DNA of 64,000 nt from an uncultured virus (IMG/VR IMGVR_UViG_3300005336_000021). Taxonomy: Duplodnaviria > Heunggongvirae > Uroviricota > Caudoviricetes. Positions 3,839-18,568 of this stretch are shown piece by piece. Under the pieces are notes generated by a model, which saw only the letters and a program-made list of their open reading frames with translations, searched no databases and had not been told where the DNA came from. How positions within the stretch are numbered: the stretch's first letter is position 1; each line of letters starts with the position of its first letter. The stretch lies in the IMG/VR virus record IMGVR_UViG_3300005336_000021. One strand, 5' to 3'. The position numbers and the translations under genes were made by a program.

Positions 3839-3878
3839 CGCTGCAAAAACAAAAACGACAAAAACACAAAAACAGTAT

Positions 3879-4337
3879 ATGAAGAAAAACAAAAACAAAA
3901 ACTCGAACCCCGTCACCCCCGCTGTCCTCGACGCCGCTCCTGCCGCTGTCCTCGACCAAGCGCCCCAAGCGCCGCTGTCCGACTCGGAGCAAGCCGCCGC
4001 TGTCGCACAGTTGCAGGAGGAAGTGCCTGCTGCCGCGCCGGAAGCACCCGCACCCGCGCCGGCTACACCCGCAGTAAGCAGCAAGCGCGACGCGTTTGGA
4101 GGGCGTTTGGGAACACGCATGTCCAACATTAACGTCGCCGTAATTAACGCCGGCGCAACCGGCGCAACAATCGCGGAAGTCGCCGCTGCCACTGGGGAAT
4201 CCAAATCCTTAGTAAGCTCGCAGCTCTGCTGGATGGTTGCGCACAACAAAGGCGCTACCCGCACGCAGGAAACGGTAAACGGCAAAAAGCAATTCCGCTA
4301 CTTCGCCGCCAACGCCTTGCTCGCCGTCAACAACTAA
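3879..4337 (+). CDS. Ala/Pro-rich linker + C-terminal winged-HTH protein
   Basis: DAFG...ATIAEVAAATGESKSLVSSQL; resembles C-terminus of 28296-28913. Confidence 0.65.
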   Translation: MKKNKNKNSNPVTPAVLDAAPAAVLDQAPQAPLSDSEQAAAVAQLQEEVPAAAPEAPAPAPATPAVSSKRDAFGGRLGTRMSNINVAVINAGATGATIAEVAAATGESKSLVSSQLCWMVAHNKGATRTQETVNGKKQFRYFAANALLAVNN

Positions 4338-4343
4338 GTTTCT

Positions 4344-4382
4344 CGCCGCCGGCGCTTGCCTAACCCGCAAGCGCCGTAGGCG
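4344..4382 (+). other. GC-rich intergenic hairpin with GC/UA internal loop
   Basis: CGCC-GC-CGGCGCTTGC-loop-GCAAGCGCCG-TA-GGCG. Confidence 0.6.
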
Positions 4383-4407
4383 GTAAACATCAAACCAAAA
4401 CGACAAA

Positions 4408-4683
4408 ATGACAAAAATACTCATATCCTGCAAAAAGTGGCAGCTGGAGGCAGTCCGCCTCGCCCTCGACTGCAACCTCTACAAAACGACGGCGCTGTCC
4501 TACATGAATGTAGGTGAAGACCTCTACCTGCTCGAGGTCGCCAACAAACAAGAATGTGTGCTCTACGCGGAATGCCTCCGCTACATTTCCGGCTCAGATC
4601 CCGTCAACGGCCCTGAGTGGATCGAGCTCGCGGAAATGCTAGAAGACGCTGTGGCAGGGATTTGCAACGATTTCACCGCTTAA
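4408..4683 (+). CDS. Hypothetical early protein
   Basis: AAAACGACAAAATG leader. Confidence 0.65.
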   Translation: MTKILISCKKWQLEAVRLALDCNLYKTTALSYMNVGEDLYLLEVANKQECVLYAECLRYISGSDPVNGPEWIELAEMLEDAVAGICNDFTA

Positions 4684-4709
4684 CCCTCAACCCAAAACAA
4701 AACGACAAA

Positions 4710-4904
4710 ATGACACCTGAAGAAATCATCCAACTGGCGAAGTTGCTGGTGAAATACCACAACTCGATCACCAAAGCCAACGCGAGCATATACGGCGAGA
4801 AGATGGACAAGGCGCTGTGCCAAGACACCTTCACCACGCTGTTCTGCCAGGGCTTTCGCCAATGCGACGAGCTGGGCAAGCTCCAAAAGGAGTTCGTCAA
4901 ATGA
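4710..4904 (+). CDS. Hypothetical early protein
   Basis: AAAACGACAAAATG leader. Confidence 0.65.
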   Translation: MTPEEIIQLAKLLVKYHNSITKANASIYGEKMDKALCQDTFTTLFCQGFRQCDELGKLQKEFVK

Positions 4905-5233
4905 GAGCGACAACCAAACTATTCGCCTACGACAAGGGCACCAAAACCTTCTTCCAGGAGATGTCTACGCTAGAGGGAAATGCCGACGAAAGCGACCCCT
5001 CTCGCAAGACGAAAGCGAGGAGTCTCGTGTTCCACCAGGTGTATCCAGACGCTTGCGACGAGGGAATGACGCTCGTTTCAGCACGCACTGGTGAGGAAGT
5101 TGACTACGTGGTAATTGAACAAGAACGAGCTGTTGACGGTGAACTGGAGTCATGGACTTTGGTGCCGACTAAACAGGCATTGAAGCGGGTGCCTAGAGCA
5201 CGTGGAACGAAGATAATCATCTGGAACGACTAA
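4901..5233 (+). CDS. Hypothetical early protein
   Basis: ATGA overlap; QVYPDACDEG motif. Confidence 0.65.
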   Translation: MRATTKLFAYDKGTKTFFQEMSTLEGNADESDPSRKTKARSLVFHQVYPDACDEGMTLVSARTGEEVDYVVIEQERAVDGELESWTLVPTKQALKRVPRARGTKIIIWND

Positions 5234-5252
5234 ACAACCAATACCTAATAAA

Positions 5253-5289
5253 GAAAGGATATCCCACCCATCGCGAGGTGGGATTTTCT
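5253..5289. terminator. Probable (bidirectional) intrinsic terminator
   Basis: ATCCCACC/GGTGGGAT stem, A-rich before and TTTCT after, between convergent genes. Confidence 0.6.
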
Positions 5290-5449
5290 GTGGATGGTGA
5301 TAAGGTGAAGAACATGGGAAAGACTGCGGGGACGGCGAGCAAGCAGAGATTAGCAGATTCGGGTAGATTAGGTGATTTCGTTATTCGGGTCTTATCGGGG
5401 TTTCTTCTTTGTGTCCAGCTTTATTTTTCACTTTAGCATCTCCATTTGC

Positions 5450-6220
5450 CTATCCTTCTTCTTTTTTCTCCTCTACAATTTCAGCATCTGTCACCTCACC
5501 ACTTGTCAATCTTTTCGGCTCGAGCTCTCGTTTTCTTCGAACCGCGTCCAATATCTTCCTTCTGGTTTCGAAGTCAAGCTCGAGGTCATCTAAATTCAAT
5601 GCCGCATGGTGAATCGTCCCCGTATGTTCCACTTGCATCTTCTCGTTGTATCCCCTGTCGGCATTCTGTGTTCGGTTTGCGAATACTATCGCCCCTGGAT
5701 AACCCTCATCTACCAATCTCATCAATGCCGTCTCAAAATAATCTTTCTTCGCCTCTTGCAATTCCTTCATTGCCATCTTAAAATTCACCTGTTCCTTCCA
5801 ACGTTCAACTGTGTCTCGTGTCACCCCAGCCAAACGTGCAGATTTGCTTGTGTTCCAATTGGTTGACAACATCGCGTGGAGGAATATCTCTTGCCTCAAT
5901 TCATTCGCGAGGTCTCCATTCATCACGTCCGGCACCTCATTTTCATCAGCCTCTAAATACCACTCCACCCGGTTCCACATCTTCCTTGCAGGCTTGCTCA
6001 ATTTCCCTAACATGAATTCATTGAAGTCTGCCACTCTCTGTTTTCTCGCCTCAGCCACTTCATACACCGTCTTCACGTCTTCACGGTTCTTTCTCCACCA
6101 ATTCAAAGTGTCTTGGGGCACGTCTAGCGTGGCAGACAAGGCGCCCAATTTCATGCCTCTCAGGAGACAATCATACAGTGTGAGAAGGAATTTGAGGTTA
6201 ATCTTCTTATTCGCTTTCAT
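5450..6220 (-). CDS. Putative terminase small subunit (double HTH)
   Basis: SARLAGVTRDTVERWK HTH then DYFETALMRLVDEG..AIVFANRT..DRGYNEKMQVEHTG, a TerS-like pattern. Confidence 0.65.
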   Translation of the reverse strand: MKANKKINLKFLLTLYDCLLRGMKLGALSATLDVPQDTLNWWRKNREDVKTVYEVAEARKQRVADFNEFMLGKLSKPARKMWNRVEWYLEADENEVPDVMNGDLANELRQEIFLHAMLSTNWNTSKSARLAGVTRDTVERWKEQVNFKMAMKELQEAKKDYFETALMRLVDEGYPGAIVFANRTQNADRGYNEKMQVEHTGTIHHAALNLDDLELDFETRRKILDAVRRKRELEPKRLTSGEVTDAEIVEEKKEEG

Positions 6221-6375
6221 AAGTCGTTTTTCACAGTAAGATGTCTTTCAGCAGTGTGCAAGTAGTGATTTCATTCGCAAAGCAATCGCATACAATTTGC
6301 ATTGCAATTCGGCATAAATCGTTCACCACGAATCACGGTGAGCAAAATCCCTTAGCATATTTGCAAAATCAAAAT

Positions 6376-6419
6376 CGGCATGAATCTTGCTCATACAAAG
6401 CAAGTTTGCAACGGTGCAA
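6376..6419 (+). promoter_or_regulatory. sigma54-type promoter 2 + TTGCA-N4-TGCAA palindrome
   Basis: CGGCATGAATCTTGCT 6376-6391; TTGCAacggTGCAA 6406-6419. Confidence 0.75.
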
Positions 6420-6448
6420 ACGAAGCAGAGAATAAACAAAACGACAAA

Positions 6449-6655
6449 ATGAAAACAGAACAAAACGACAAACTCAGCAAGGTGCAGGCTTTGCTAGTGC
6501 AGGCCCGCGAGGCGCTTGCCGCAGTGCAATGGAGCACCTCCGTTGTGCTTAACAAGAGCCCCCTCGAACACGACATAGTCTGTTTAGACTTCTATGTCAA
6601 CAATGCCATCGGCCGCTGCGCCACCATCAACCGCACCGTCGGCAAACTCAAATAA
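6449..6655 (+). CDS. Hypothetical early protein
   Basis: AAAACGACAAAATG leader. Confidence 0.6.
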   Translation: MKTEQNDKLSKVQALLVQAREALAAVQWSTSVVLNKSPLEHDIVCLDFYVNNAIGRCATINRTVGKLK

Positions 6656-6660
6656 GACAT

Positions 6661-7038
6661 ATGAAATTATTTGGACATTTCCAAGACTTAGTCAACGCCT
6701 ACGTCGGCCCTTTCAAAAGTGAAAAGGCAGTCCGCGCCCACGCCAAGTGGTGCAAAGAAGTCAGAGGCGACGGTGGTGAACTTATCGAAATCGTCACTTC
6801 AGTGCCTGCTGGTGAATTCACAATTACTCCAGCCGAAGATAAAGCGCCAATCCTTAAGGTTGGTGACAAAGTCCACGTCACGTTTGAATCCGGCCACCGG
6901 ATGAAGGGACGGGTGACTGAGGTTGTTGGTGAACTTTACTTTGCTGAATTTGGCAAAGGTGAATTCAAATTCACATCCAAAATCTACTGGAGCGCGTGGG
7001 GTAACAAAAAGCCGTCATGGAAGGAGAACGCACACTGA
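6661..7038 (+). CDS. Hypothetical early protein
   Basis: Tightly packed ORF. Confidence 0.65.
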   Translation: MKLFGHFQDLVNAYVGPFKSEKAVRAHAKWCKEVRGDGGELIEIVTSVPAGEFTITPAEDKAPILKVGDKVHVTFESGHRMKGRVTEVVGELYFAEFGKGEFKFTSKIYWSAWGNKKPSWKENAH

Positions 7039-7039
7039 T

Positions 7040-7240
7040 ATGGAACTTCAAGACCTAGTCGAGATTGTGCGAGAGTTGGATGCACAGCAATTTGAAGAGC
7101 TGGTGCGTGCAATGTCCGCACAGTGTAGAGAGACAGCCGAGCACATGGAAGGTGACGGCAACGACAGCGGTGCGTGGCGCAAGGCTGCAGACGGGCTTGC
7201 AGACACGGCATATTGGCTGAGCAGGCGCAGTGGAAACTAA
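7040..7240 (+). CDS. Small helical protein (paralog of 9996-10292)
   Basis: QFEELVRA...RRSGN. Confidence 0.65.
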   Translation: MELQDLVEIVRELDAQQFEELVRAMSAQCRETAEHMEGDGNDSGAWRKAADGLADTAYWLSRRSGN

Positions 7241-7248
7241 GGAAATCT

Positions 7249-7482
7249 ATGAAGACATATAGCGCAAAACACGACGAAGACATCGAAATCCCAACATTGC
7301 AAGAAGACGATGACGGCAATGTGAAGGTGACGACGATTGAAGACATGCTCCTGCTAGTGCAGAGCATGGGTTACGAAGACATCGCTGAGTTCGAGGAAGA
7401 CACCACGGTAAAGGTAAATGAATTGATTGGAAAGTGGTGGAACCTGTGCCGGGACGACGTGAACATAATTGATAAGGAATGA
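7249..7482 (+). CDS. Hypothetical acidic protein
   Basis: Packed ORF. Confidence 0.6.
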   Translation: MKTYSAKHDEDIEIPTLQEDDDGNVKVTTIEDMLLLVQSMGYEDIAEFEEDTTVKVNELIGKWWNLCRDDVNIIDKE

Positions 7483-7483
7483 T

Positions 7484-7705
7484 ATGAAAGACTCAAAACT
7501 GTTTGGTAGGATTGGCAAGCGCGACGATGTTGTGCGTGCCAGCCGAGAAGTAAAGAAGGCTGGGGGTGTCGTCACCGAAAACCGAGACGCACAAACCACA
7601 GTCGCGACAAACCCACTTGATGGCGCTACCATATTCAAGGCTCTTCACAAGGGCAACGGTATTTGGCTCATCATGTATTCAACAGACTACTACCCAAAAA
7701 CATGA
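7484..7705 (+). CDS. Hypothetical protein
   Basis: Packed ORF. Confidence 0.6.
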   Translation: MKDSKLFGRIGKRDDVVRASREVKKAGGVVTENRDAQTTVATNPLDGATIFKALHKGNGIWLIMYSTDYYPKT

Positions 7706-7893
7706 AACTGAAACAAGAGGCGAAGAAGTTGAGACGGAAGCACTACATCGGCACCGAATGGACGAAGGAATTCGGCAACGTCCGGCTCTACCGATTTGAC
7801 ACAGTCGAGGAAAGTCAACATTTTCTCGACGTCGTAGGTGGTGCTCCCATCACCACAGGACTGAAAGGTTTTACCGTCGCAGTCAGCAAGTAA
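7702..7893 (+). CDS. Hypothetical protein
   Basis: ATGA overlap. Confidence 0.6.
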   Translation: MKLKQEAKKLRRKHYIGTEWTKEFGNVRLYRFDTVEESQHFLDVVGGAPITTGLKGFTVAVSK

Positions 7894-7898
7894 GCAAT

Positions 7899-8228
7899 AT
7901 GAAAACAATCAAACTTAGCGGCAAACCCTACCAGCACGTCGTCGTAGTTGAAGGACACTCCTACGAACGATTTGGTGACGGGGTCAGGTTCAAACGCACC
8001 TACAAAGGAACTGACTTGGTGAAGGTCCTGACACGAGTCTGCGAGAAACATTTCTACGGACTTGACGACGACTATGAAGAGGGAGTTCCTTGGACGCCCG
8101 AACTTATCTTGAAAGAGATCGAGGAGAGGAATGGTGACGGTTGCGACAGCATCAGCAAACTCACTGTCAACGGTGAGGTGAAAATCGAGATGGAAACGAT
8201 TGACGAAGGAGAAGAGGAAGTCGAATGA
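7899..8228 (+). CDS. Hypothetical protein
   Basis: Packed ORF. Confidence 0.65.
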   Translation: MKTIKLSGKPYQHVVVVEGHSYERFGDGVRFKRTYKGTDLVKVLTRVCEKHFYGLDDDYEEGVPWTPELILKEIEERNGDGCDSISKLTVNGEVKIEMETIDEGEEEVE

Positions 8229-8716
8229 ACAAGAATACCGCAGCACGGCGAGGCTACGAACACACTGGGCACTTCGCCTGGGGGTATGAACGTGAGACGC
8301 TAAAGCCGAAACTTGAGGAATACCGCAAGGCAGGATACAAGGCGATCATCGTCTCAATTCCTCCCGATCCTCTCAGCCGAGGACACCACGGGACATCCTA
8401 CGCCATCATGGTTGAGCCGAGATACGCTGTGGACCAGCGCGTCAAGGCTGCGAAAGCAGAAATCGACCGCTACGAGGACAGCATCTCTCGCATCCTAGAG
8501 CACCATCTTGGAAATGCCCTTAAGGAAGTAGAGAAAACGCGAGAGAAACAGAGAGAGAACGCGAGATGGCTAGCTAATAACGGACATGCCAGCGACGAGG
8601 TCAAAGAAATCCTATCCCAAGCGGAGAAAACCGCCGAAGAGCAGGCTTTCAGCAACCATCTCGAACTAATCGAAAAGGTGAGAGAAATCTTAGAAGAGAT
8701 TGGAGGCAGCATATGA
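8225..8716 (+). CDS. Hypothetical protein
   Basis: ATGA overlap. Confidence 0.65.
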   Translation: MNKNTAARRGYEHTGHFAWGYERETLKPKLEEYRKAGYKAIIVSIPPDPLSRGHHGTSYAIMVEPRYAVDQRVKAAKAEIDRYEDSISRILEHHLGNALKEVEKTREKQRENARWLANNGHASDEVKEILSQAEKTAEEQAFSNHLELIEKVREILEEIGGSI

Positions 8717-9090
8717 GCGACACTGACAAAGAGTTTTGGGACGCAATGGACAGCCGCGACAACGAGATTGCCAAGCAGCAGGCTGAGGTTTATCGCCTCT
8801 GTGGCATTCCTGAAGGAACTGAGGTGATAGACTACGACGGTGAAGATGAACTGCCAAAAACCGGCGTAGTGGTCGACTGCACTCAACACGAAGAGTTCTG
8901 TGTGCTCTACGTTGACGGAGTCGAAGTCGCTCAGTTCGCCGTTAGCTGTCGAGGTAGCTTGTGGATATTTGATGCTGTCGTTTGGGCGACAGGGAAATGC
9001 TACAAGGCGACCGACGAGAAGCCCAGCTTGCGCGAGGTGAAGACGGTAGACACGAACGACAAAGAAATTGGAGCGTGGTTTTTCACATGA
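8713..9090 (+). CDS. Hypothetical protein
   Basis: ATGA overlap, GGAGG upstream. Confidence 0.65.
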   Translation: MSDTDKEFWDAMDSRDNEIAKQQAEVYRLCGIPEGTEVIDYDGEDELPKTGVVVDCTQHEEFCVLYVDGVEVAQFAVSCRGSLWIFDAVVWATGKCYKATDEKPSLREVKTVDTNDKEIGAWFFT

Positions 9091-9179
9091 ATCATCTTAT
9101 CAACATCGACTCCTATCAACTCGCCAAAGCAGGACTAATCCTATTCAGCCTGCTGTGGCTAGCACTCATCATCTTATGA
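9087..9179 (+). CDS. 30-aa membrane peptide
   Basis: ATGA overlaps at both ends; hydrophobic C-terminus. Confidence 0.45.
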   Translation: MNHLINIDSYQLAKAGLILFSLLWLALIIL

Positions 9180-9364
9180 AGACAAACCTACGCAAATTGA
9201 GCACTCGTCAACTGACAAAACTCGCCATTCAAACCGGCGTGCTTCTCCCTTACATGACAGACAAAGAGAAGGTTGATGCCATCGCCAACTGGGCCGCAGG
9301 TTACAGTTTGAATTGGCAAGACTTCACCTCGCGATTCCCTTGGTTGGGAGAACCATTCGCCTAA
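9176..9364 (+). CDS. Hypothetical protein
   Basis: ATGA overlap. Confidence 0.55.
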   Translation: MKTNLRKLSTRQLTKLAIQTGVLLPYMTDKEKVDAIANWAAGYSLNWQDFTSRFPWLGEPFA

Positions 9365-9370
9365 TAGATT

Positions 9371-9556
9371 ATGTATAACATAACAGCACAGCAAATTGAA
9401 GCCGAGAAGAAACTCAAAAAGGAAGGATTCCGATTCTCGAATTGGATCTCCGCGCAAGAAGAAAACCCCGAACTGGGGTGCATGGTTATGAAACGAAAGC
9501 CGAACAAGTTCACGACAGAGTATCGCGAGATTTCGCCAGACGGGAGCGTGAACTGA
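9371..9556 (+). CDS. Hypothetical protein
   Basis: Packed ORF. Confidence 0.6.
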   Translation: MYNITAQQIEAEKKLKKEGFRFSNWISAQEENPELGCMVMKRKPNKFTTEYREISPDGSVN

Positions 9557-9564
9557 CTCAGATT

Positions 9565-9607
9565 CGGCACACAACCTGCTTATTTAATATCAGTTGCAAT
9601 AATGCAA
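9565..9607 (+). promoter_or_regulatory. sigma54-type promoter 3 + palindrome
   Basis: CGGCACACAACCTGCT 9565-9580; TTGCAataaTGCAA 9594-9607. Confidence 0.65.
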
Positions 9608-9617
9608 AACGACAAAC

Positions 9618-9821
9618 ATGAAAATCATCATCAAAGTAGGTAAGGATCACTTCGTCAAGGAGTATGACGTCCTTAAGGATGCGGTGATATTCACTCGTAA
9701 CGAAAGTGAAGCACTCGTGTTCAAATCCGAGGCAAGCGTCAACCACTGGCTCGACCAATATGCCAATTGTGGAACGGGTCTCAACTGGGGACAGGACATC
9801 AAACTGAGGAAGTTCGTATGA
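9618..9821 (+). CDS. Hypothetical protein
   Basis: AAAACGACAAACATG leader. Confidence 0.6.
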   Translation: MKIIIKVGKDHFVKEYDVLKDAVIFTRNESEALVFKSEASVNHWLDQYANCGTGLNWGQDIKLRKFV

Positions 9822-9991
9822 ACGAAGAATACCAAAAGGCTCTCGACCTGCTCGAACAAATCGAGCGCACCGCCAAGCGGGCCGCCGGGCTGACGAGCAA
9901 GGACACACCATCGCACGCACAAAAGATCCGGAATCTCAAACTGCTTGAGATTGTCGACTACTTGGAGAAACTGTGTGAAAAATCTGGCTAA
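9818..9991 (+). CDS. Hypothetical protein
   Basis: ATGA overlap. Confidence 0.55.
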   Translation: MNEEYQKALDLLEQIERTAKRAAGLTSKDTPSHAQKIRNLKLLEIVDYLEKLCEKSG

Positions 9992-9995
9992 GAAT

Positions 9996-10292
9996 ATGAC
10001 AAAGATAAACGAAATCATCGAGAGGATGAAATGCTGCCGGCCCGAAGACAAACCGGCGCTGGAAGCGATCCCCGCACAGGACAGTGGGTGCATCAAATTC
10101 AATGACGACTTTGCAAACCGCGCAGCGGACCTGATACTGGGAGCTGACGCGGATCAATTTGAAGAATTGGTGAGGGCTTTAGCAGGATTTAGCGGCTTAT
10201 ATGCTACCGACTGCGGTGATGACGCCTATGCCCAAGCAGCCACGCACCTCTTCAAAGCAGCCACAGCACTACGTGGCAGGATGGGAAACTAG
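9996..10292 (+). CDS. Small helical protein (paralog of 7040-7240)
   Basis: QFEELVRA...GRMGN. Confidence 0.65.
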   Translation: MTKINEIIERMKCCRPEDKPALEAIPAQDSGCIKFNDDFANRAADLILGADADQFEELVRALAGFSGLYATDCGDDAYAQAATHLFKAATALRGRMGN

Positions 10293-10294
10293 AT

Positions 10295-10489
10295 ATGACA
10301 ACACAAGAGATAATTGAAAAGATTCTAACGATGTCCGCCGATGAAATTGAGGAAGTTCTCAAAGCGGTGATAGATGTCACCTCCGAAGCCGCCGGCGAGG
10401 CTGTTGATCCGCAAGACGGACAGGCATTTGGTGAATGCACGTTGGCACTGAGGAAAGCGATTAAACATTTGGAGAAACGAACCAAGTAA
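10295..10489 (+). CDS. Small helical protein
   Basis: Weakly similar to the 7040 family. Confidence 0.6.
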   Translation: MTTQEIIEKILTMSADEIEEVLKAVIDVTSEAAGEAVDPQDGQAFGECTLALRKAIKHLEKRTK

Positions 10490-10497
10490 GGACAAAA

Positions 10498-10797
10498 ATG
10501 ACAACGAAACAAATCAGAGAGGCACTAGATGGTGTGGTAGACACACTAGGCAAGAACAAGGCGGGAAACTACGTAGCACGCCGCGGATTCTTTTACACAA
10601 ACGGCGGCACGGCGGACAAGTTCGCCGAGGAAATCAAACGACAGATTCCGGCGGCTAACATCCTCAACACTTGGGAGAGGTGGACGGCGTTCAGGGGTGG
10701 TGCGAGCACTGCCAACCAGTCACACTGGGGAGTTGAATTTGAGGTATCTGAGATTTTGGTGGAGAGGTTCGACTCCACCAACAAAGCGGTATCCTAA
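10498..10797 (+). CDS. Hypothetical protein
   Basis: RRGFFYTNG...FRGGASTANQSHW motif. Confidence 0.65.
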   Translation: MTTKQIREALDGVVDTLGKNKAGNYVARRGFFYTNGGTADKFAEEIKRQIPAANILNTWERWTAFRGGASTANQSHWGVEFEVSEILVERFDSTNKAVS

Positions 10798-10859
10798 TCG
10801 ATGCCGCCTGCGGCGCTGGTTCCTTTGTCGTTTCCGGCGCCGCAGTAGGCAGGGATTAG
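10794..10859 (+). ncRNA. Structured intergenic RNA, loop antisense to the AAACGACAAA leader motif
   Basis: Stems CTAATC/GATTAG, TGCC/GGCA, CTGCGGCGCTGG/CCGGCGCCGCAG; loop contains TTTGTCGTTT (10824-10833). Confidence 0.45.
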
Positions 10860-10881
10860 CCTGTAACAAACCAAGAAAGAC

Positions 10882-11121
10882 ATGAAGACCAAGACGAAGA
10901 AAGTGCTCATACCAAAAGTCACATCAATTGGTGACTTGTTCCACCGTGCCGCAACAGATCCTCGCTATGCAGAGCTGGCGATGATCAGCGCGTCAAACCT
11001 CGGTGGAACCTGCAAGGACCTCAAAGAGGCAAGGCAATGGCTTAATTGCAATGCAATGGAGAGTGACAGCGAGCAGGGGGTGGTGGACGAGATCAACTTC
11101 TGCCGAGACCTTGTGAAGTAG
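10882..11121 (+). CDS. Hypothetical protein
   Basis: ORF after hairpin. Confidence 0.6.
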   Translation: MKTKTKKVLIPKVTSIGDLFHRAATDPRYAELAMISASNLGGTCKDLKEARQWLNCNAMESDSEQGVVDEINFCRDLVK

Positions 11122-11130
11122 TCAACCTGT

Positions 11131-11252
11131 TTTGCAACCGCAGTGCAAAACATTGCGGTTGCAAACACCACCAATGAATTCATTTGCAAAACCGCAATAA
11201 AACACGTTCGGCATGAATCTTGCTCATACAAACTAGCTTTGCAATTATGCAA
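11131..11252 (+). promoter_or_regulatory. sigma54-type promoter 4 with upstream inverted repeat and downstream palindrome
   Basis: TTTGCAACCGCA/TGCGGTTGCAAA 11131-11165; CGGCATGAATCTTGCT 11209-11224; TTGCAattaTGCAA 11239-11252. Confidence 0.75.
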
Positions 11253-11277
11253 GGCGAAAAACAGAAAGAAACGACAA

Positions 11278-11889
11278 ATGAGACGACGAAAATTAACACC
11301 GCAAGAGCAGGCAACTGAAAATGCCAATGCTCAAGCCCGCGCCAAGGAACGCGCCGCAGCAGAGGCCCAGCGCAAACTCGAACGAAGAGAGAGATGCGTG
11401 AAGGAAGTGAGCGAATTGATGGAGAAGGCGAGAATCCTCTCCAACTGGCCCTTGACCGAAGAAGGTGAAGAAGCCTCGAAAATCCAATACGTCATGAGAG
11501 ACATCGGCAGGACCTGGTTCGGTCTGCACGAAGAATTGATTGAACGTCAAGTCGAGTTCATGGCACGCCCCGCCAACTACTTCGAGTGGGCCGAGAAAGA
11601 CATGATAAATGCCTGCAAGCGAGAAATCCTTGACAGCATTCTCTACCTGCTCAGCGAAGAAGGTCAAGAAGGTCAAAACATCCAGCCTAGCTTGAGACTG
11701 GTAGATATCTTGTCCGAGATTGCCGAGAGACTAACAGATGCCCTACTCAACAATGAGGACCGGCCCACATCCACAAACGTGGCACATAACGCCACGATGA
11801 TTGCGAAGAAGGAAGCTCAATCCTACATGCTACGCTGGCACTTGAACGGTTGGCTGCGGCTGCTCAAACCCGTCTACAAAGTCACATGA
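11278..11889 (+). CDS. Hypothetical protein
   Basis: AAACGACAAATG leader. Confidence 0.65.
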   Translation: MRRRKLTPQEQATENANAQARAKERAAAEAQRKLERRERCVKEVSELMEKARILSNWPLTEEGEEASKIQYVMRDIGRTWFGLHEELIERQVEFMARPANYFEWAEKDMINACKREILDSILYLLSEEGQEGQNIQPSLRLVDILSEIAERLTDALLNNEDRPTSTNVAHNATMIAKKEAQSYMLRWHLNGWLRLLKPVYKVT

Positions 11890-12359
11890 AAATGGATTAC
11901 GAAGACCAGAAGACTCTCGCCAAGATCGCCCGAGACCGGCGATACGTGAGAGGCTGGGCCGGAGGAGACGATCATCCATTCCAAGGTCCTGATGGTTACT
12001 CAGGATATACGGTGACTGACGCCCGCTGTCACATGACTCGCATCAAGCAGCAGATCGAAGAGAAGTATGGAATCACTCACACTCCCTCACCTGCAACACT
12101 CAAGCGGCAGCAGGAGGAGTGGATACGGAACCGTGACAAGCGAGCGAAGATCGATGCGAAGGTGAGAGAGGCCTTCCCACTCCTGAAGAAAGCCTACCAC
12201 GTGATTTGTGTCAACCAATGGGATGGACGCAAAGCCATGAGGCGAATCGTGAAGCGAATGGGCTTCGAGAACATCAGCGCGGCTTGCGCCTACCGGGCCC
12301 AAGCCAACAAGCTGAAAGACAGACTCCTGAGAAAGGCCGGATTGAGAGTCCGTTGGTAG
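11886..12359 (+). CDS. Hypothetical basic protein
   Basis: ATGA overlap. Confidence 0.6.
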   Translation: MKMDYEDQKTLAKIARDRRYVRGWAGGDDHPFQGPDGYSGYTVTDARCHMTRIKQQIEEKYGITHTPSPATLKRQQEEWIRNRDKRAKIDAKVREAFPLLKKAYHVICVNQWDGRKAMRRIVKRMGFENISAACAYRAQANKLKDRLLRKAGLRVRW

Positions 12360-12382
12360 ATAATACAGAAAGGAAAACGACA

Positions 12383-13144
12383 ATGAAAGTATCTGACGAA
12401 ATCATAGAGAAGCTGACAAAGATTCTCAGGCTGGCGACCGACCGGGCCGCACAGCCTGGTGAGGTTGAGGCCGCGATGGCCAAAGCGCGAGAGATGGCAA
12501 TGCGTCACAGCATCGACCTCGCCTCGGTGAACCTGAACCCGGACACCAAGGTAGAAGGTGGGATCCAAGTTGAGAAGAACTCAACACTGAAGACACGATC
12601 GAAATACAAGCAACCCTACCACTACTGGGTCTTCGCCGTTCTCCAAGAAGTCTTCGAGGTGAAGGTTATCATCTCAGAATGCAGTGACTACAACGGCGGG
12701 AAGGTCATCAGTGCGATTCACATCATCGGCGAAGCATTAGACGTTGCCATTGCTTGCGCGATTTATCCTTTCCTTGAGAAGGTGTTCCCTGCTACGCTGT
12801 CACGCGCCGTATCGGCTGGCACGCTAACATACTGCGCCGCCCATACCAACGGATGCTACCGCGGAATCCATTGGGGCATCATCGAAGCGAACAGGCGAGA
12901 AAGGGAAAAGTTCAAACCCGAAGAGCAGCAGACCCTCGCAATGGTAGTCAGGAAGAAAGAAGAGGTTGTCCAGGCTGCGATGCACGAGATGTTCCCAGCT
13001 ATAAAGAAGCGCGAGGAGTTGGAGGCGAAGAAGAAAGAAGAAGGAAAGGAAAAGAAAGCTCGCAGGGTGCAGATGAGTTGGGAGGCTGTGAGCTACGGGC
13101 ACCAAGAAGGGAAAAAGATCAACCTCAAGCAGGTGAAATCATGA
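12383..13144 (+). CDS. DUF2786 domain protein
   Basis: IIEKLTKILRLA...EVEAAMAKAREMAMRHSID. Confidence 0.75.
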   Translation: MKVSDEIIEKLTKILRLATDRAAQPGEVEAAMAKAREMAMRHSIDLASVNLNPDTKVEGGIQVEKNSTLKTRSKYKQPYHYWVFAVLQEVFEVKVIISECSDYNGGKVISAIHIIGEALDVAIACAIYPFLEKVFPATLSRAVSAGTLTYCAAHTNGCYRGIHWGIIEANRREREKFKPEEQQTLAMVVRKKEEVVQAAMHEMFPAIKKREELEAKKKEEGKEKKARRVQMSWEAVSYGHQEGKKINLKQVKS

Positions 13145-13521
13145 AACAAGAAACTGAAATTGCTCTGTTTGAGAGGCTCTCAGAGCACCACAAGCTCGGC
13201 TCGTTCAAGGTGAGGAAGAACGAGAAAGAGTCAAATGAACTCCACACCTGGTGGGACATCGGCCCGCTGGACAAGGAAGGGAAACTGATCGAGACATTCT
13301 ACGTCGTCGAAGACAAGGGAGAGAAATGGTTCGAAGCATTCCTTTGGGTCCAATACCCAGGCAACCGCGATGAACCCCCAAGCATGGACGAGAAGAGAAT
13401 TGGAGATACCTATGCCTCCCTAGGCTGGGCTTTGCGCTCCATCCTCCTTGAAAACCTCAATCAATTCATCGAGGAAGGCAATGAAGAGGCCTACTACGCA
13501 GAGATAGAAAAGGACTTATGA
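13141..13521 (+). CDS. Hypothetical protein
   Basis: ATGA overlap. Confidence 0.6.
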   Translation: MKQETEIALFERLSEHHKLGSFKVRKNEKESNELHTWWDIGPLDKEGKLIETFYVVEDKGEKWFEAFLWVQYPGNRDEPPSMDEKRIGDTYASLGWALRSILLENLNQFIEEGNEEAYYAEIEKDL

Positions 13522-13820
13522 CATCGAAACAATTCTTCGACACGCTAGAGTTTCACGAGTATGAATTCGTCAAGTGGGAAGGTGTGGTAGAGGCCATTGT
13601 CGCCAAAGACGGGAAAGAATTCTCCGCGAGACAAGACACAGCCTACCACTTGGAGGGGCTGCCACAGTCTATCGTCATCCATTCTCTACCGCGCGAGAAC
13701 GAACCTGTGCCGCCCGTTCAGATCATCCAAGAGAAAGATTTCTTCAGACGAGGCATGCAACGTGCCGAATCTCCTTCAGTTCAGCCTCAGAAGCCTCACC
13801 AGGATCCTTCGCAGAGATAA
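13518..13820 (+). CDS. Hypothetical protein (3' end overlaps primase)
   Basis: ATGA overlap. Confidence 0.45.
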   Translation: MTSKQFFDTLEFHEYEFVKWEGVVEAIVAKDGKEFSARQDTAYHLEGLPQSIVIHSLPRENEPVPPVQIIQEKDFFRRGMQRAESPSVQPQKPHQDPSQR

Positions 13821-14613
13821 CCAGGTTAGTCGTTTCTCCTGGGAAGCACGCGAGTTGTTCACACAGCTCGCGTGCCTTGCTTTGTGCTTCCTTCGATGAG
13901 TCGAAGCAGATGAATCTCCGAGGGATCTGAGCGAGCTGCTTTACCTGCGCCGTGGTGAAGGTAGTCCCTAAAAGAGCTCCCGCTCCCGGCCCTATCTTCC
14001 AGACATCAACCGGGCCCTCTACGACGACGATGGTGTGAGTGCAGTAGTCTAGGCCGTAGATGAAATCTTTTGGATTCTGTGCCATCTCTGCGGGAGCCGA
14101 GATGTATCTCAACGAGACACGATTACCTATCGCCCGAGTCGTCCAGCTGACAAGAACCCCACGATAGGTGATAGGGATGAAAAGTCTCCAAGATAGTTTC
14201 GCTGCGAGCGCGATTCCTCTTACTCCCCACACCTGAGAGATCTCTTCAGGATCCAACCCACGAGAACGCAAATATCTCTTGTGCGGACCGCCGATCGGCA
14301 CGATCCCGGCAGGTTCCTGCGTTGAGATTCGCGTTCTCTCGCGTTTGATTGCTGGTCCTGCGTGCTTATACTGTGCAAGTAGAGAGAACGCAATCTGACG
14401 TGGAATGCCCAAGGCCTCTAAGGTCTGCCAAGCCGAGTGACCTCCGCAGCGCCAGCAATTACACCACTTCGTCTGGAGATTCCAACCTAGGTGGTAATTC
14501 GTGCTCAAGCAGAAGGGACATCGCTGGATCTGTAACCAACCAGGTCTCGCATGATGATGACCAGATTTGAGATGGCTGATGCCTAAGTCGTCTAGAATCT
14601 CTTCAATTGTCAT
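13744..14613 (-). CDS. DNA primase (Zn finger + TOPRIM)
   Basis: CPFC..HLG..CNCWRCG; VVVEGPVDV; ICFDS; KDPG. Confidence 0.85.
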   Translation of the reverse strand: MTIEEILDDLGISHLKSGHHHARPGWLQIQRCPFCLSTNYHLGWNLQTKWCNCWRCGGHSAWQTLEALGIPRQIAFSLLAQYKHAGPAIKRERTRISTQEPAGIVPIGGPHKRYLRSRGLDPEEISQVWGVRGIALAAKLSWRLFIPITYRGVLVSWTTRAIGNRVSLRYISAPAEMAQNPKDFIYGLDYCTHTIVVVEGPVDVWKIGPGAGALLGTTFTTAQVKQLAQIPRRFICFDSSKEAQSKARELCEQLACFPGETTNLVISAKDPGEASEAELKEIRHVACLV

Positions 14614-14825
14614 AAAGGAATAGGCCCGGGAAGGTCAAGTTATGCAAAACCCCTTCCCGGGCCCAACCCGGAGGATGACAGGTGTGATACCGAGACCCGT
14701 CATCTCCAAGACTATTATCTTCATGTGCTACACTTTGCAATGCGTCCACGTTGCATTATTATATCTGCAAACGAGACGGTGAGCGACACTCATTGACTCT
14801 CAATGCTTCTTACGCTGAATGAAAT

Positions 14826-14867
14826 CGGCATGAATCTTGCTCATAAAAGTCAGTTGCAAACATGCAA
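14826..14867 (+). promoter_or_regulatory. sigma54-type promoter 5 + palindrome
   Basis: CGGCATGAATCTTGCT 14826-14841; TTGCAaacaTGCAA 14854-14867. Confidence 0.75.
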
Positions 14868-14894
14868 AACAAAACGACATAGAAAAGAAAAGAT

Positions 14895-15335
14895 ATGCCA
14901 AAGAATCGACAAACCACTTGCACCTGGAAGGACTGGTGCGCCGGAACCACAAGCGACGGAACCAAAGCTGTCGCCGGTCCGTTCAGAGTCATCAACGGAA
15001 AGCACTACGAAGGTGAAATTTACGGGAAAGAGTTCAAGAACAGCGACGAAGCCTTCGCCGAGATGCACGCTCGCGGCTACACCCAAATCTACTACCCACG
15101 AAGCAGCGTCGTAGAGGGATGCTTCAAGGGGCTCGAGTGCCAAGAGCGACAAGCGAAGTTCGACGCACTCTACCGGCTGTGGAAGTGGCGCAAGCGAAAC
15201 GGGTATTGCGCTCATTGCACCGACCTCCTGGAGAAGGAAATCGTCAAGCTCGCCGAGAAGGTCGGCATCTTCCACCCTTGCACGAAACAGTTCAGGAAGG
15301 AAAAACCGATCAAGGGAAGGACGAAGAAGGTATGA
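14895..15335 (+). CDS. Hypothetical protein
   Basis: After promoter 5. Confidence 0.6.
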   Translation: MPKNRQTTCTWKDWCAGTTSDGTKAVAGPFRVINGKHYEGEIYGKEFKNSDEAFAEMHARGYTQIYYPRSSVVEGCFKGLECQERQAKFDALYRLWKWRKRNGYCAHCTDLLEKEIVKLAEKVGIFHPCTKQFRKEKPIKGRTKKV

Positions 15336-15559
15336 ACATCTACACAATCACCGTCCACGCGGTGGGTTACACGACAGTCCAGTTCGACGTCACAGCCCGC
15401 AGCCTAGCAGAAGCTCGCAAGCAAGAATACAATGCGGTTTCCATGTGGCTGAAAGAAAATGACGTTGATGAAGACACACGAGGGTTGGCGTTCGTCAAAA
15501 CAACACGGTGGAAGGGGCCCATCGCCGGAGCCATCCGCAGCGGCCACATCACTCGATGA
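15332..15559 (+). CDS. Hypothetical protein
   Basis: ATGA overlap. Confidence 0.6.
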   Translation: MNIYTITVHAVGYTTVQFDVTARSLAEARKQEYNAVSMWLKENDVDEDTRGLAFVKTTRWKGPIAGAIRSGHITR

Positions 15560-15777
15560 AAACAGGAGAACGAATTTGGAAGCTATACGGTTCCTACGAG
15601 TGCGTAGTGAAGGTGAAGGGGGCTCTTTACCGAACCCATTCAGCCTTCTGTCAAAAAACCCTCGGTTACAAGCTCACCGGATCTTGGAATCCTCGCCGTC
15701 GTGGAATTGAGGATGGTCACCAACTGAGTGCTTGGCTTCAAAGCCTGCCGTGGTTGGAAGGAAAGGAATATAGATGA
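15556..15777 (+). CDS. Hypothetical protein
   Basis: ATGA overlap. Confidence 0.55.
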   Translation: MKTGERIWKLYGSYECVVKVKGALYRTHSAFCQKTLGYKLTGSWNPRRRGIEDGHQLSAWLQSLPWLEGKEYR

Positions 15778-16076
15778 ACCCTTTCTTCAACCCGGACGAC
15801 TGCCCGTTCGAGGTCTTAGGATTTAGGGAAGACCTGATGGACGCGGTGACGGGAGCGATGCTCGGCACGAGAGAGATCACCGAGCCGGATCGCCCGCTCG
15901 GATCAAATGGGATGAAAGAATATATCATCACCGAGACGATTGTGTTGATGAAAGGTCACAAAGAATTTACGTTGAAGGCGAGCCCACAGAGGCCTCGACG
16001 TGTAGTGGGAATGATTCAAATACTCTGCGGAAGAACCAAAAGGAAAAACGATGAAAGAAGAGAAAACATGGACTAA
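15774..16076 (+). CDS. Hypothetical protein
   Basis: ATGA overlap. Confidence 0.6.
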   Translation: MNPFFNPDDCPFEVLGFREDLMDAVTGAMLGTREITEPDRPLGSNGMKEYIITETIVLMKGHKEFTLKASPQRPRRVVGMIQILCGRTKRKNDERRENMD

Positions 16077-16623
16077 GAAGAGATTCGAGGTTCACCACAG
16101 TGGAGACAAGACCACCTGGTATCGGCTTGGTATGCTGGGATATCCCAACCTTCAAGATGCCAAAGTCGCCTACGAAAAAGCCAAGAAGGAATTCAGGTAT
16201 CTCCGGCTTGTCAAAGTAGAGCTGAACTACGAACTCCTCGAAACAGGAACCACAGCTGAGACCGGGCCAGAGAAGAGAGCGAAGATCGTCGCTCAAGCGC
16301 AGGCATTATTCAAAGACAGCCCGTCGGTTCACGTCTACGAAGGATCGTCAATCAGCTTTGGAGAGAAGGTTGAGATGAGTCCCTCCTACGTGATGGTCGA
16401 AGCGCGTCAGGACGTCCTTGCCGGTAAAGCACCAAAACGCATCAACTTCCCCAAAGATGATGCAGGCAAGGATGAATACATCAAACTCCATAAGGAGTGG
16501 GGAACCAAGGCTCACAACCTCGACGACATCCTTGCCGAAGAGATCAAGAAACGACTCACCGCAGCGGGTATCAGCTTCCGACACGGTAGGCAATACGGGT
16601 GGAACGTCTTCCGTCTCGCTTAA
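16051..16623 (+). CDS. Hypothetical protein
   Basis: Packed ORF. Confidence 0.6.
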   Translation: MKEEKTWTKKRFEVHHSGDKTTWYRLGMLGYPNLQDAKVAYEKAKKEFRYLRLVKVELNYELLETGTTAETGPEKRAKIVAQAQALFKDSPSVHVYEGSSISFGEKVEMSPSYVMVEARQDVLAGKAPKRINFPKDDAGKDEYIKLHKEWGTKAHNLDDILAEEIKKRLTAAGISFRHGRQYGWNVFRLA

Positions 16624-16632
16624 AAGAAACAC

Positions 16633-16660
16633 TTGCAAACCTAGTGGCCCACACTATACT
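16633..16660 (+). promoter_or_regulatory. sigma70-type promoter (TTGCAA-N16-TATACT)
   Basis: Directly upstream of the sigma-like gene. Confidence 0.5.
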
Positions 16661-16669
16661 CGATCTGTC

Positions 16670-17206
16670 ATGCAAAACCATATGAACCACATGCCTGCCG
16701 TCAATCCAGAAGAGGAATTTCCCAAGGTGGAAAAGATGCTTTACAACCTTGCTTGGAAATTCACAAACACCTACCCAATCGACTTCGAAGAGGCTAAGCG
16801 AGAGGCTTACTATGCCTTCGTCCGCGCCTGCTACGATTACAACCCTGCCCGAGAAACGAAGTTTTCGTCTTGGGCCTACACCTGGGTATGGTGCCACTTG
16901 AAGACTCTCATTACCAAGCGGACAACGGATCCGCTCACCTTCATCGAAGTGAAGGAGGAGATCTTCGGTGAAGCGGCTCCAGAGCGAAGCCCAACGCTGG
17001 ACATGATTGATGACTTGTCCGAGGACGCGAAGGAGATCATCGGGCTCTTGCTCGAGACACCAGGCGAGCTGATAGGCTCGAAGATGACGCCGCGTCAGTT
17101 CCTTTACAAAGTGAAGGAGATCCTGGTGCGTGGTGGCAAGCCCAAGGAAAGGGTCGACAAGGCCCACAAAGAGATTTGCGAGAAATTCCAAGCAGCCTGG
17201 GCATGA
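16670..17206 (+). CDS. Phage sigma-factor-like protein (region 2)
   Basis: MLYNLAWKF...DFEEAKREAYYAFVRACYDYNP..TKFSSWAYTWV. Confidence 0.7.
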   Translation: MQNHMNHMPAVNPEEEFPKVEKMLYNLAWKFTNTYPIDFEEAKREAYYAFVRACYDYNPARETKFSSWAYTWVWCHLKTLITKRTTDPLTFIEVKEEIFGEAAPERSPTLDMIDDLSEDAKEIIGLLLETPGELIGSKMTPRQFLYKVKEILVRGGKPKERVDKAHKEICEKFQAAWA

Positions 17207-17209
17207 CAA

Positions 17210-18568
17210 TTGAAAGAGACAAAACTTAGACCGTTTCAGATAGAAGGGGTCCAGCAGATCTACCACTTCAAAGGTCGCACTCTGCTGGCGGATGAAATGG
17301 GCCTGGGCAAGACGATCCAGGCACTCTACTGGGTGAAGAAGATCCCTAAGAGGAGACCTGTCGTCATCGTCACGCCGGCGAGTGTGAAATATGTCTGGCA
17401 GAGTGAGGCTGCTCTTCACTTCGGCATGAGAACCGAAGTCCTTGAAGGGCATCACAGAGGTGAGCGAACCCAACTCATCCCTGAAGAGATCATCATCGTC
17501 AACTACGACATTCTTCGCTCTTGGTTGCCGTCCTTGATGAAAGCCAAACCGCAGTGCGTGATCTTGGATGAGTGCCACTACATCAAGAACCCCAGTGCCA
17601 TGCGAACCAAAGCCGCGCTGAAGCTGGCGAAGAAGGCCTCTTCAGTGCTGGGCCTCAGCGGCACTCCCCTCACCAATCGGCCGATCGAATTGTGGACGAT
17701 CCTGAAAGCAATCAAACCTGATTTGTTCCCTTCCAGAGAAGAGTATGCTTGGCGCTATTGCAAGCCGAGATGGACGAGGTGGGGCTGGCTCTACGATGGT
17801 GCAGTAAGGATGCCAGAGCTCCACGCGATCTTGCGTCGATCTTGCATGATTCGACGCTTGAAAAAGGATGTCCTAGCAGAACTGCCCAATAAAACACGAT
17901 GCATGGTCCCCTTCAAGCTCAAGTCTTATGAAGAGTATGACCAAGCCGAGAACGACTTCCTGCTCTGGCTCAGACGAATCAGTCCACAGAGAGCGGTGCG
18001 AGCCAAGCGAGCCGAAGCACTAGCGAAGATGGGCTACCTGATACGACTCGCAGCAAGGTTGAAGCTGGTGTGGACCGAGCGTTGGATTGAAGAGTTCTAT
18101 GAATCCCATCCCGGCGAGAAACTCGTTGCGTTGACGTGCTGGACGTTCGTCATAGATCATTTGAAACAGAAGTTCGGCAATCGCGCCGTCATCATCGACG
18201 GTCGGGTGACTGGAAGGAAACGAGAGGAGACTCGTAGATGCTTTCAATCCAACCGAAGAGTCGATTTGCTTCTCGGCAACTGGCGAGCGGCAGGGGTAGG
18301 TATCACACTCACAGCGGCATCCAACGCGGCGGCACTGGACCTTCCATGGACACCAGGAGACTTGCTTCAGGGAGAAGATCGCATTCATCGCATTGGACAG
18401 AAGAAGAAGGTCATGATCCATTACCTGATGGCCTTGGACACCATCGAGGAGAAGCAAGTCACCATCCTTAAGAAGAAGACGAAGATTCTCGACGCGATCT
18501 TAGACGGCAAGAAATACACCGGTCAGTTGAATATGTTCGACGAGTTGATTGAAAGGATGGCCGCGTGA
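17210..18568 (+). CDS. SNF2-family helicase (SMARCAL1/HARP-like)
   Basis: LLADEMGLGKT, DECH, LSGTP, QGEDRIHRIGQ. Confidence 0.92.
   Translation: MKETKLRPFQIEGVQQIYHFKGRTLLADEMGLGKTIQALYWVKKIPKRRPVVIVTPASVKYVWQSEAALHFGMRTEVLEGHHRGERTQLIPEEIIIVNYDILRSWLPSLMKAKPQCVILDECHYIKNPSAMRTKAALKLAKKASSVLGLSGTPLTNRPIELWTILKAIKPDLFPSREEYAWRYCKPRWTRWGWLYDGAVRMPELHAILRRSCMIRRLKKDVLAELPNKTRCMVPFKLKSYEEYDQAENDFLLWLRRISPQRAVRAKRAEALAKMGYLIRLAARLKLVWTERWIEEFYESHPGEKLVALTCWTFVIDHLKQKFGNRAVIIDGRVTGRKREETRRCFQSNRRVDLLLGNWRAAGVGITLTAASNAAALDLPWTPGDLLQGEDRIHRIGQKKKVMIHYLMALDTIEEKQVTILKKKTKILDAILDGKKYTGQLNMFDELIERMAA

Follow-up and report, generated by a model that had tools for sequence, protein, structure and literature searches.

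A conserved intercistronic RNA hairpin of an uncultured tailed phage displays in its loop the exact complement of a leader shared by several of the phage's own translation starts

Processing hairpins for ribonuclease III (RNase III) lie between the early genes of phage T7, and in phage T4 the RegA repressor and the RegB endoribonuclease bring about shut-off by acting on a short common sequence at many early messenger RNA (mRNA) starts. To our knowledge, multi-gene early shut-offs such as those by RegA and RegB are protein-based, the known antisense RNAs of phages address one gene each, often the gene opposite, and no T7 site carries the antisense of the phage's own leaders. The c4 RNA of phages P1 and P7 and its target are made from the same operon transcript. 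In the passages of one report that deal with c4, its complementary sequences are thought to lie in loops, and the RNA, bound around the ribosome-binding site of a phage mRNA, blocks its translation (PMC12197685). Here we describe a hairpin at positions 10794–10859 of a 64,000-nucleotide (nt) stretch of DNA, referred to as the window, from an uncultured soil virus of the Caudoviricetes (IMG/VR record IMGVR_UViG_3300005336_000021). Its loop contains the exact reverse complement of a leader motif, AAACGACAAA, that recurs at the phage's translation starts. As far as those passages describe c4, it is the closest precedent: in both cases a sequence displayed in a loop is complementary to a phage translation-initiation region. 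c4 has one target (ant) and serves the immunity of temperate phages, whereas six to nine targets share one leader here. The present phage differs further in that no integrase was seen among the window open reading frames (ORFs) scanned and in its seemingly Shine-Dalgarno (SD)-less host, and no sequence or Rfam relation of the element to c4 was found.

The 66-nt element consists of CTAATCGATGCCGCCTGCGGCGCTGG (5′ arm, from 10794), TTCCTTTGTCGTTT (loop) and CCGGCGCCGCAGTAGGCAGGGATTAG (3′ arm, to 10859). Its arms (10794–10819 and 10834–10859; 26 nt, 81% complementary, 14-nt spacer) are the longest among 48 inverted-repeat pairs in the window. When the 66 nt are folded alone, the minimum-energy structure (−39.4 kcal/mol) is the three-part stem that an earlier note, made from the letters of this DNA, had drawn, and it is the same in all three sequence variants described below. 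With nine upstream bases added, the minimum changes to three separate hairpins (−45.2 kcal/mol, z = −5.3, equalled by 0 of 200 shuffles), in which the central stem of 12 base pairs (bp) and the 14-nt loop are retained. The minimum-energy fold of 136 nt is a row of four hairpins designated A, B, C and D (−59.4 kcal/mol, z = −5.2; Table 1). Hairpin C, with 10 of its 12 pairs G-C, is common to the three-part and four-hairpin folds, and hairpin B is incompatible with the outer and middle stems of the three-part form. The loop is laid out as 4 nt on the 5′ side followed by the anti-leader 10-mer, and the reverse complementarity that the earlier note had seen there is exact (10824–10833, TTTGTCGTTT against AAACGACAAA). 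The + strand folds better than the − strand by 3.1–7.0 kcal/mol in all three variants, and several G-U pairs are possible on the + strand only, in keeping with an RNA that has the same orientation as the genes. The G-U pair on which the same note had based its preference for + strand RNA, 10817–10836 of hairpin C, is confirmed; it is U-G in two variants and U-A in the third (L134), where all pairs of the central stem are Watson-Crick on either strand.

Searches with neighbouring proteins and with DNA patterns found only three sequence variants: that of the window (identical to IMG/VR record G001), that of L135, L006 and L136, and that of L134 and L137. The variant phages are syntenic with the window, with alignable segments 74–86% identical for L006 and a length-weighted mean identity of 78% for L134. 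All 102 pair cells of the four-hairpin fold are standard, with three pairs changed on both sides. Such both-sided changes averaged 1.0 in a shuffle control and reached three in 13 of 500 shuffles, and sliding the partners by 1–3 columns gave 32–66% paired. In hairpin A, one pair is altered on both sides (G-C to U-G) and two of the other changes are synonymous, so that a coding constraint is present as well. All eight pairs of hairpin B hold in the three variants, with one compensatory change (U-A to A-U) and three one-sided changes to G-U or C-G. Pair 10816–10837 of hairpin C is C-G, G-C and U-A across the variants, and hairpin D has one change, G-U to G-C. Of the 93 pair cells in the three-part fold, 92 are standard; again three pairs are changed on both sides, including a middle-stem C-G to U-A; the outermost pair is broken in L134. 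On these sequences both lower folds are supported; they are mutually exclusive, and the three variants do not choose between them. A ribosome terminating at 10795–10797 would occupy the 5′ parts of both hairpin B and the three-part stem and could decide the lower fold. Because of the compensatory changes, the 102 standard pair cells and the + strand stability in all variants, the structure is considered to be under + strand selection, and it is very probably a real, conserved structure at the RNA level of the + strand. In the loop, 13 of 14 positions are invariant, the sole change (C to G at 10822) lying outside the 10-mer. The leader motif is likewise invariant; anti-leader loop and motif occur together in three of three variants, and both are missing in the four more distant relatives (0 of 4; large terminase 59–70% identical).

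The leader motif has eight copies in the 64 kilobases (kb) of the window, seven on the + strand and one, the loop, on the − strand, whereas 0.15 are expected and 0 of 100 shuffles reach eight. The count is again 7 + 1, with no further copies, across the two fragments that together form the ~75-kb genome. No antisense copy other than the loop exists in the window or in the ~75-kb genome, 0.023 being expected on the + strand, and the chance of the 10-mer within a given 14-nt loop is ~1.8e-6 from base composition. The complementarity is far beyond chance, and a loop with an exact anti-leader is too improbable as a coincidence. Five of the seven sense copies lie 0–1 nt before an ATG or overlap it, and the loop 10-mer complements about −10 to −1 there. 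Copies 3853 and 4398 come after a hairpin, and copies 6439, 9607, 11269 and 14872 (one mismatch) after a promoter-like module ending in TTGCA-N4-TGCAA. The distance from the motif to this palindrome varies (0–20 nt) while that to the ATG is fixed, and the motif therefore belongs to the translation start and not to the promoter. It is tied to start codons likewise in L134 and L135.

In contexts of 136–651 nt, the 10-mer is predicted to be fully unpaired with P = 0.51 at an opening cost of 0.41 kcal/mol, and the predicted opening of the six exact leaders costs 0.12–1.17 kcal/mol. Net pairing was calculated as the loop-only duplex energy plus the opening energies, because whole-hairpin cofold and duplexfold treat loop–target pairing as a pseudoknot. 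The predicted values are −9.8, −10.3, −10.9, −11.0 and −9.4 kcal/mol for five motif leaders; the leader of 9618 (motif 9607) is the weakest of the six at −6.0 kcal/mol. Among 20 other start regions of the operons, 8225 gives −10.7, 9996 gives −8.6 and the rest give −6.8 kcal/mol or weaker, so that one of the 20 reaches −9.4. Since the 10-mer adjoins the 3′ strand of the stem and 4 nt are left on the 5′ side, the geometry suggests that the loop–target duplex could stack on the stem in a manner resembling an H-type pseudoknot. The multi-target pairing proposed in the earlier note thus finds agreement in the exact complementarity at five starts, in the predicted accessibility and in five of six energies (−9.4 to −11.0 kcal/mol); its action as a switch would depend on the steps modelled below.

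The likely host bears on the effect of such a duplex. SD-like 4-mers precede 20 of 98 predicted genes (16% background), compared with 47 of 91 genes (14% background) in the terminase relative G005, and SD sequences seem not to be used by the host. The top cultured matches of the terminase are phages of Croceibacter, Cellulophaga and Riemerella (36–39% identity). Taken together, the few SD-like sites and these matches make a host among the Bacteroidota likely. As set out in the relevant portion of one study, initiation in Bacteroidetes relies on unstructured leaders with upstream adenines (PMC6847099). A 10-bp duplex in such a leader should therefore matter.

The hairpin is not unique. Other hairpins between cistrons form a family with it, and part of its function is therefore probably generic (processing or stability). 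The next-longest inverted repeats, hairpins I2 and I3, likewise start at stop codons within this operon system. The family has two members in the window, two in L134 and three in L135, all on the + strand and at or beside a stop codon. A common lower architecture, namely an outer stem, a middle stem GCCGC/GGCGG, a 2x2 internal loop and an inner stem of 10–12 bp, is held by the studied hairpin, by I3, by the I3 orthologues in L134 and L135 and by a further L135 hairpin. The family sequence is GCCGC-CUGC...GCAG-UA-GGC(G/A)G, and the 2x2 internal loop is 5′ GC / 3′ UA in four of seven members. The orthologues of I3 keep the fold with different stem and loop sequences, and in the family stems and loops covary freely from phage to phage. 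Paralogue loops are 6–7 nt long and wholly different among the three phages (CUAACCC, UCCGACC, CCAAUUC), complements of these loops do not occur elsewhere, and the inner stems also diverge (73% mean column identity). The studied hairpin alone has a 14-nt loop with the anti-leader, twice as long and with 13 of 14 positions conserved. The RNase III sites in the early region of T7 suggest, by analogy, that the family members are most likely processing or 3′-stabilising signals. The likeness lies in irregular hairpins of ~20 bp with internal loops, several per operon, placed between early polycistronic cistrons and without U-tails; the difference is that the present hairpins are known from sequence alone and that their cleavage is predicted by analogy. 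A scan of the four more distant relatives found no family hairpin, and the family is clade-specific.

The block that contains the element is 93% identical to that of L135/L006 and 87% to that of L134, and the flanking ORF bodies are unrelated or replaced. Three unrelated upstream ORFs, of 99 amino acids (window), 255 amino acids (L134) and 19 codons (a mini-ORF in L135), end in the common 13 residues LV(E/D)RF(D/E)STNKA(V/A)(S/T), and all stop at the same codon, which is located within the RNA structure. The downstream gene of the window differs from that of L134 and L135. With such unrelated ORFs on its flanks, the block appears as a conserved island at a cassette boundary, and the shared tail suggests cassette exchange there.

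Table 1 Positions of the hairpin, the leader copies, related hairpins and landmark genes. Coordinates refer to the window unless another sequence is named.
Feature	Position	Strand	Remarks
Three-part stem	10794–10859	+	6 + 4 + 12 bp, two 2x2 internal loops; 22 bp in total
Loop	10820–10833	+	14 nt, DNA TTCCTTTGTCGTTT, also written UUCCUUUGUCGUUU
Anti-leader 10-mer	10824–10833	+	TTTGTCGTTT, also written UUUGUCGUUU; immediately adjoins 3′ strand of stem
Hairpin A	10756–10781	+	9-bp stem, 8-nt loop; minimum-energy fold; within coding tail LVERFDSTNKAVS (with stop)
Hairpin B	10786–10807	+	Stop codon TAA (10795–10797) in loop
Central hairpin C	10808–10845	+	12-bp G+C-rich stem, 14-nt loop; −25.0 kcal/mol, z = −4.85
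Hairpin D	10849–10864	+	5-bp stem, 6-nt loop
Conserved block	10751–10864	+	Last ~15 codons of upstream ORF and structured intergenic RNA
Shared coding tail	10751–10797; L134 9117–9163; L135 8082–8128		
Leader copy	3853–3862	+	16 nt before ATG 3879 (positions −26 to −17)
Leader copy	4398–4407	+	Abuts ATG 4408
Leader copy	4700–4709	+	Abuts ATG 4710
Leader copy	6439–6448	+	Abuts ATG 6449
Second leader copy	6463–6472	+	Within codons 5–8 of 6449 ORF; local leader duplication (repeat D3)
Leader copy	9607–9616	+	1 nt before ATG 9618
Leader copy	11269–11278	+	Final A is the A of ATG 11278
One-mismatch leader	12375–12384	+	AAACGACAAT; runs into ATG 12383
One-mismatch leader	34484–34493	+	AAACGACAAC; abuts large-terminase ATG 34494
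One-mismatch leader			Start codon 39532
Hairpin I2	3782–3841	+	Intercistronic; leader motif follows
Hairpin I3	4338–4388	+	4 + 5 + 10 bp, 2x2 internal loop GC/UA, 7-nt loop; leader motif follows
Further intercistronic hairpins	11131–11165; L134 2745–2800; L135 2297–2348, 9157–9207		Without U-tail
Portal	196–1689	−	
Large terminase	34494–35963		
Family-A DNA polymerase	37334–39535		
Tape-measure protein	59427–62261	−	

Anti-leader pairing is, in our assessment, the best-supported explanation of the element, and we propose it tentatively, as quite possible but short of probable. In this reading the element is an RNA structure between cistrons of a + strand operon made up of small ORFs. No promoter-like repeat was found before the hairpin, which lies inside the + strand series of small ORFs, and its RNA could therefore arise only from the operon transcript. 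The lower part, common to the family, would most likely serve as a processing or 3′-end-protecting signal, and a stable hairpin-bearing RNA would survive, either as the 3′ end of the upstream mRNA or as an excised stem-loop. In the cell, UUUGUCGUUU, stacked on the stem, would pair with AAACGACAAA, the A-rich leader that occupies −10 to −1 of the cistron coming first behind each promoter-like module or hairpin (six exact copies and three with one mismatch). The direction of the effect would be negative: the pairing would cover the region needed for binding of the 30S subunit and lower translation of the target cistrons, so that the element would be the RNA equivalent of a translational repressor with many targets. 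As with T4 RegA and RegB, one phage factor would act on many early translation starts; those factors are proteins, whereas an RNA loop is proposed here. The earlier note had suggested a phage small RNA (sRNA) from the early transcript, of which the + strand, RNA-level structure within an operon run is borne out, while transcription, processing and accumulation belong to the model. That the enlarged loop is a pairing surface for the shared translation-start leader, either in trans or within its own transcript, is about evenly balanced when both modes are considered jointly. The most far-reaching version appears rather unlikely: the hairpin would be a master anti-leader RNA that survives processing, accumulates and titrates the Kozak-like AAACGACAAA-AUG on all promoter-proximal early and middle cistrons, and a switch of the lower fold by terminating ribosomes would couple its release to upstream translation.

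Several observations weigh against the pairing model. With only three variants, in which loop and leader are both invariant, there is no covariation between them. The invariance of the 10-mer is not significant, 17 of 110 block columns being variable (P(none in 10) = 0.17), and the block is only moderately above coding DNA (87% versus a mean of 78% for L134, with other segments at 85–87%). The element is restricted to one small clade, and membership of the hairpin family explains a hairpin at this place without any antisense role. A net energy of about −10 kcal/mol is modest, and the motif-less start region 8225 scores as well as the motif leaders. Transcription, processing and accumulation of the hairpin RNA are all assumed; none of the sequencing runs with the region is on record as RNA (seven DNA runs, one with half or more of the words). 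There is one anti-leader per at least seven leaders in the genome, and repression in trans requires that the hairpin RNA outlast the mRNAs. Finally, the gene immediately downstream of the hairpin (10882) lacks the motif.

The element might instead be a generic intercistronic processing, stability or pause hairpin whose loop is constrained by something other than leader pairing, for example protein binding, and this is possible though somewhat doubtful. A host double-strand RNase would cut it, or it would block a 3′ exonuclease, and the cistrons of the early polycistronic mRNA would be separated and stabilised. Such a role agrees with the family of + strand hairpins with common lower architecture and sequence at stop codons, with the 22-bp helix and its internal loops (about two turns of irregular duplex, as in RNase III-type sites) and with the missing U-tail, though U-tailed hairpins exist in the window. 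It leaves unexplained why only this member has a doubled loop and why the start-codon motif with the strongest over-representation is matched there by its exact antisense (P ~1e-6). The generic role is also compatible with anti-leader pairing, which builds on it. Pairing confined to one transcript is unlikely; here the loop would bind leader 9607 (~1.2 kb upstream, where the unit probably starts) or 11269 (436 nt downstream), fold the mRNA back on itself and tune translation or decay of one cistron. A pairing of this kind, between the 3′ and 5′ untranslated regions, is reportedly known for icaR of Staphylococcus aureus. Leader 9607 stands directly after a promoter-like palindrome, the hairpin closes the ORF run 9618–10797, and the L134 ORF just upstream of the hairpin (8396–9163) itself begins with the motif; however, the window ORF in that place (10498) has no exact motif, the predicted net energy is weakest for leader 9607, and the distance to the nearest leader varies among the three phages.

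A signal at the DNA level is very unlikely. The 10 bp could be a protein site in either orientation, or the hairpin could be extruded as single strands with the motif in the − strand loop, for example as an origin or nicking site. The hairpin origins of rolling-circle replicons are indeed similar to this G+C-rich stem and its A/T-rich loop of 14 nt, the phage has its own primase, helicases and polymerase, and the fully Watson-Crick central stem of L134 would form equally on both strands. Against this, the motif is locked to start codons with seven of eight copies in the mRNA sense, the G-U pairs (in two of three variants, and in hairpins B and D) suit the + strand only, the hairpin family tracks gene orientation and stop codons, and the sense copies extend over 7.4 kb without iteron-like clustering. 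It is extremely improbable that the loop is a coincidence or neutral relic, an inverted leader fragment trapped in a loop and kept uniform by recombination. The location of the block at a mosaic junction, with unrelated ORFs on either side in the three phages, would suit a relic, as would the statistically unremarkable invariance of the 10-mer; yet the per-loop chance is ~1e-6, and 12 of the 17 variable block columns are paired positions of the minimum-energy fold at which every pair is retained. Such changes indicate a block that evolves under constraint and is not frozen.

Other candidate functions were tried and rejected. The hairpin shares with intrinsic terminators a G+C-rich stem-loop beginning at the stop codon, but it lacks a U-tract and its loop of 14 nt is outside the 3–8 nt range of the scan. 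No run of U follows the stem, whose 3′ flank is GUAGGCAGGGAUUAGCCUGUAACAAACC, and the terminator scan of the window does not list the hairpin while it does report the U-tailed hairpins 5261–5284 and 13846–13875. Hairpin A contains GGTTCGA, and a transfer RNA-like or transfer-messenger RNA origin was considered; ARAGORN finds nothing, its stem of 7–9 bp and loop of 8 nt are unlike a T-arm (5 bp/7 nt), and L134 has GGTTTGA. Read-through or a mini-ORF across the hairpin (UAG to UGA in L134) was also discarded, as the amino-acid changes track the stem compensations and not codon logic. Rfam gave no match at the gathering score in the whole window and only noise (E = 5–8) in 10650–10950. In the part of a study on fepA control that concerns sRNA terminator-hairpin loops, these carry the regulatory determinant in an Hfq-dependent manner, "likely without base-pairing" (PMC11979758). 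The present hairpin is similar, to the extent of that description, in that a strong 3′ hairpin holds the determinant in its loop and not in a linear seed, and different in that the whole case here is an exact complementarity of 10 nt.

Two repeats accompany the leader copies. At 6434–6488 the leader and start codon are tandemly duplicated, with the second AAACGACAAA falling within the first eight codons of the 6449 ORF; this tandem would offer the anti-leader two neighbouring sites. A 54-nt module (..ATCGGCATGAATCTTGCTCATA.AA...TTGCAA-N3/4-TGCAA) is repeated at 6366–6419, 11199–11252 and 14816–14869, with a partial copy at about 9585–9606. It is present also in L134 and L135, with the leader motif 0–20 nt downstream, and such modules probably serve the phage as promoters of its own, with the palindrome as operator.

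Further searches yielded the same clade only. The block was absent by BLAST from four near-complete relatives and one fragment reached through the large terminase, and blastn of 9500–12500 against a phage collection gave no match. The loop pattern matched 118 stretches in viral contigs, of which two lie in a hairpin, both from known contigs, and 18 in genome contigs, none in a hairpin and ~17 expected by chance. The hairpin A pattern matched two stretches, and the 3′-flank pattern with a free loop matched four, the three known variants and one chance match. Protein searches with the neighbouring ORFs and a 203-amino-acid protein returned no phage outside this clade, and reads of four DNA runs on 10650–10950 gave one 177-nt contig, identical from 10790 onward, and no new variant. 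The four distant relatives examined have neither motif nor anti-motif; they carry their own repeated promoter/leader modules without antisense copies. In G002 (L192), nine copies of AGCTAAAGTAT...CCCTAAGGGCTGACGATA...GTATG precede start codons on the − strand (~12800–20150). In G005 (L204), seven copies of GAAAGGAGCTA, which contains an SD sequence, precede start codons on the + strand (~4800–11800), four of them preceded by GGACCTGGTGACCGTT. The leader/promoter modules thus vary among relatives and follow the host's mode of initiation.

The window represents most of a tailed-phage genome of ~75 kb, and the phage is probably lytic. Helicases and a primase are encoded in addition to the genes in Table 1. 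The + strand of 3564–13521 holds a dense series of small ORFs without a Pfam family; the label "early region" for this part rests on position only. Genes for 7-deazaguanine synthesis (radical-SAM QueE-like, GTP cyclohydrolase I, QueF-like and QueC) lie at 29461–30744 and 46190–47235 and suggest a modified guanine in the phage DNA. Small proteins encoded at 16457–17206 (+) and 2124–2357 (−) match sigma-70 region 2 and region 4, respectively, and may be phage-encoded sigma factors for later promoters. The DNA polymerase ORF (37334–39535) has an HNH-endonuclease-like stretch at residues 290–370, between the polymerase matches.

An open-access keyword search of the literature found no phage RNA aimed at a leader common to many of the phage's own genes, which is not proof of its absence in print; a look at papers on the P4 CI RNA likewise gave nothing relevant. 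Whether or not the pairing holds, cassette boundaries in these phages can be recognised by the hairpin family and its conserved internal loop, and this provides a handle on RNA processing in an uncultured phage–host pair. If the anti-leader pairing holds, a single loop directed against a leader common to many cistrons would amount to timing control in a very compact form, and it would serve as a natural probe of how ribosomes without SD pairing, probably those of Bacteroidota, depend on short A-rich leaders. In the case of a master anti-leader RNA, the phage would possess a means of shutting off early translation across its whole genome through RNA alone, in a host that does without Shine-Dalgarno pairing.

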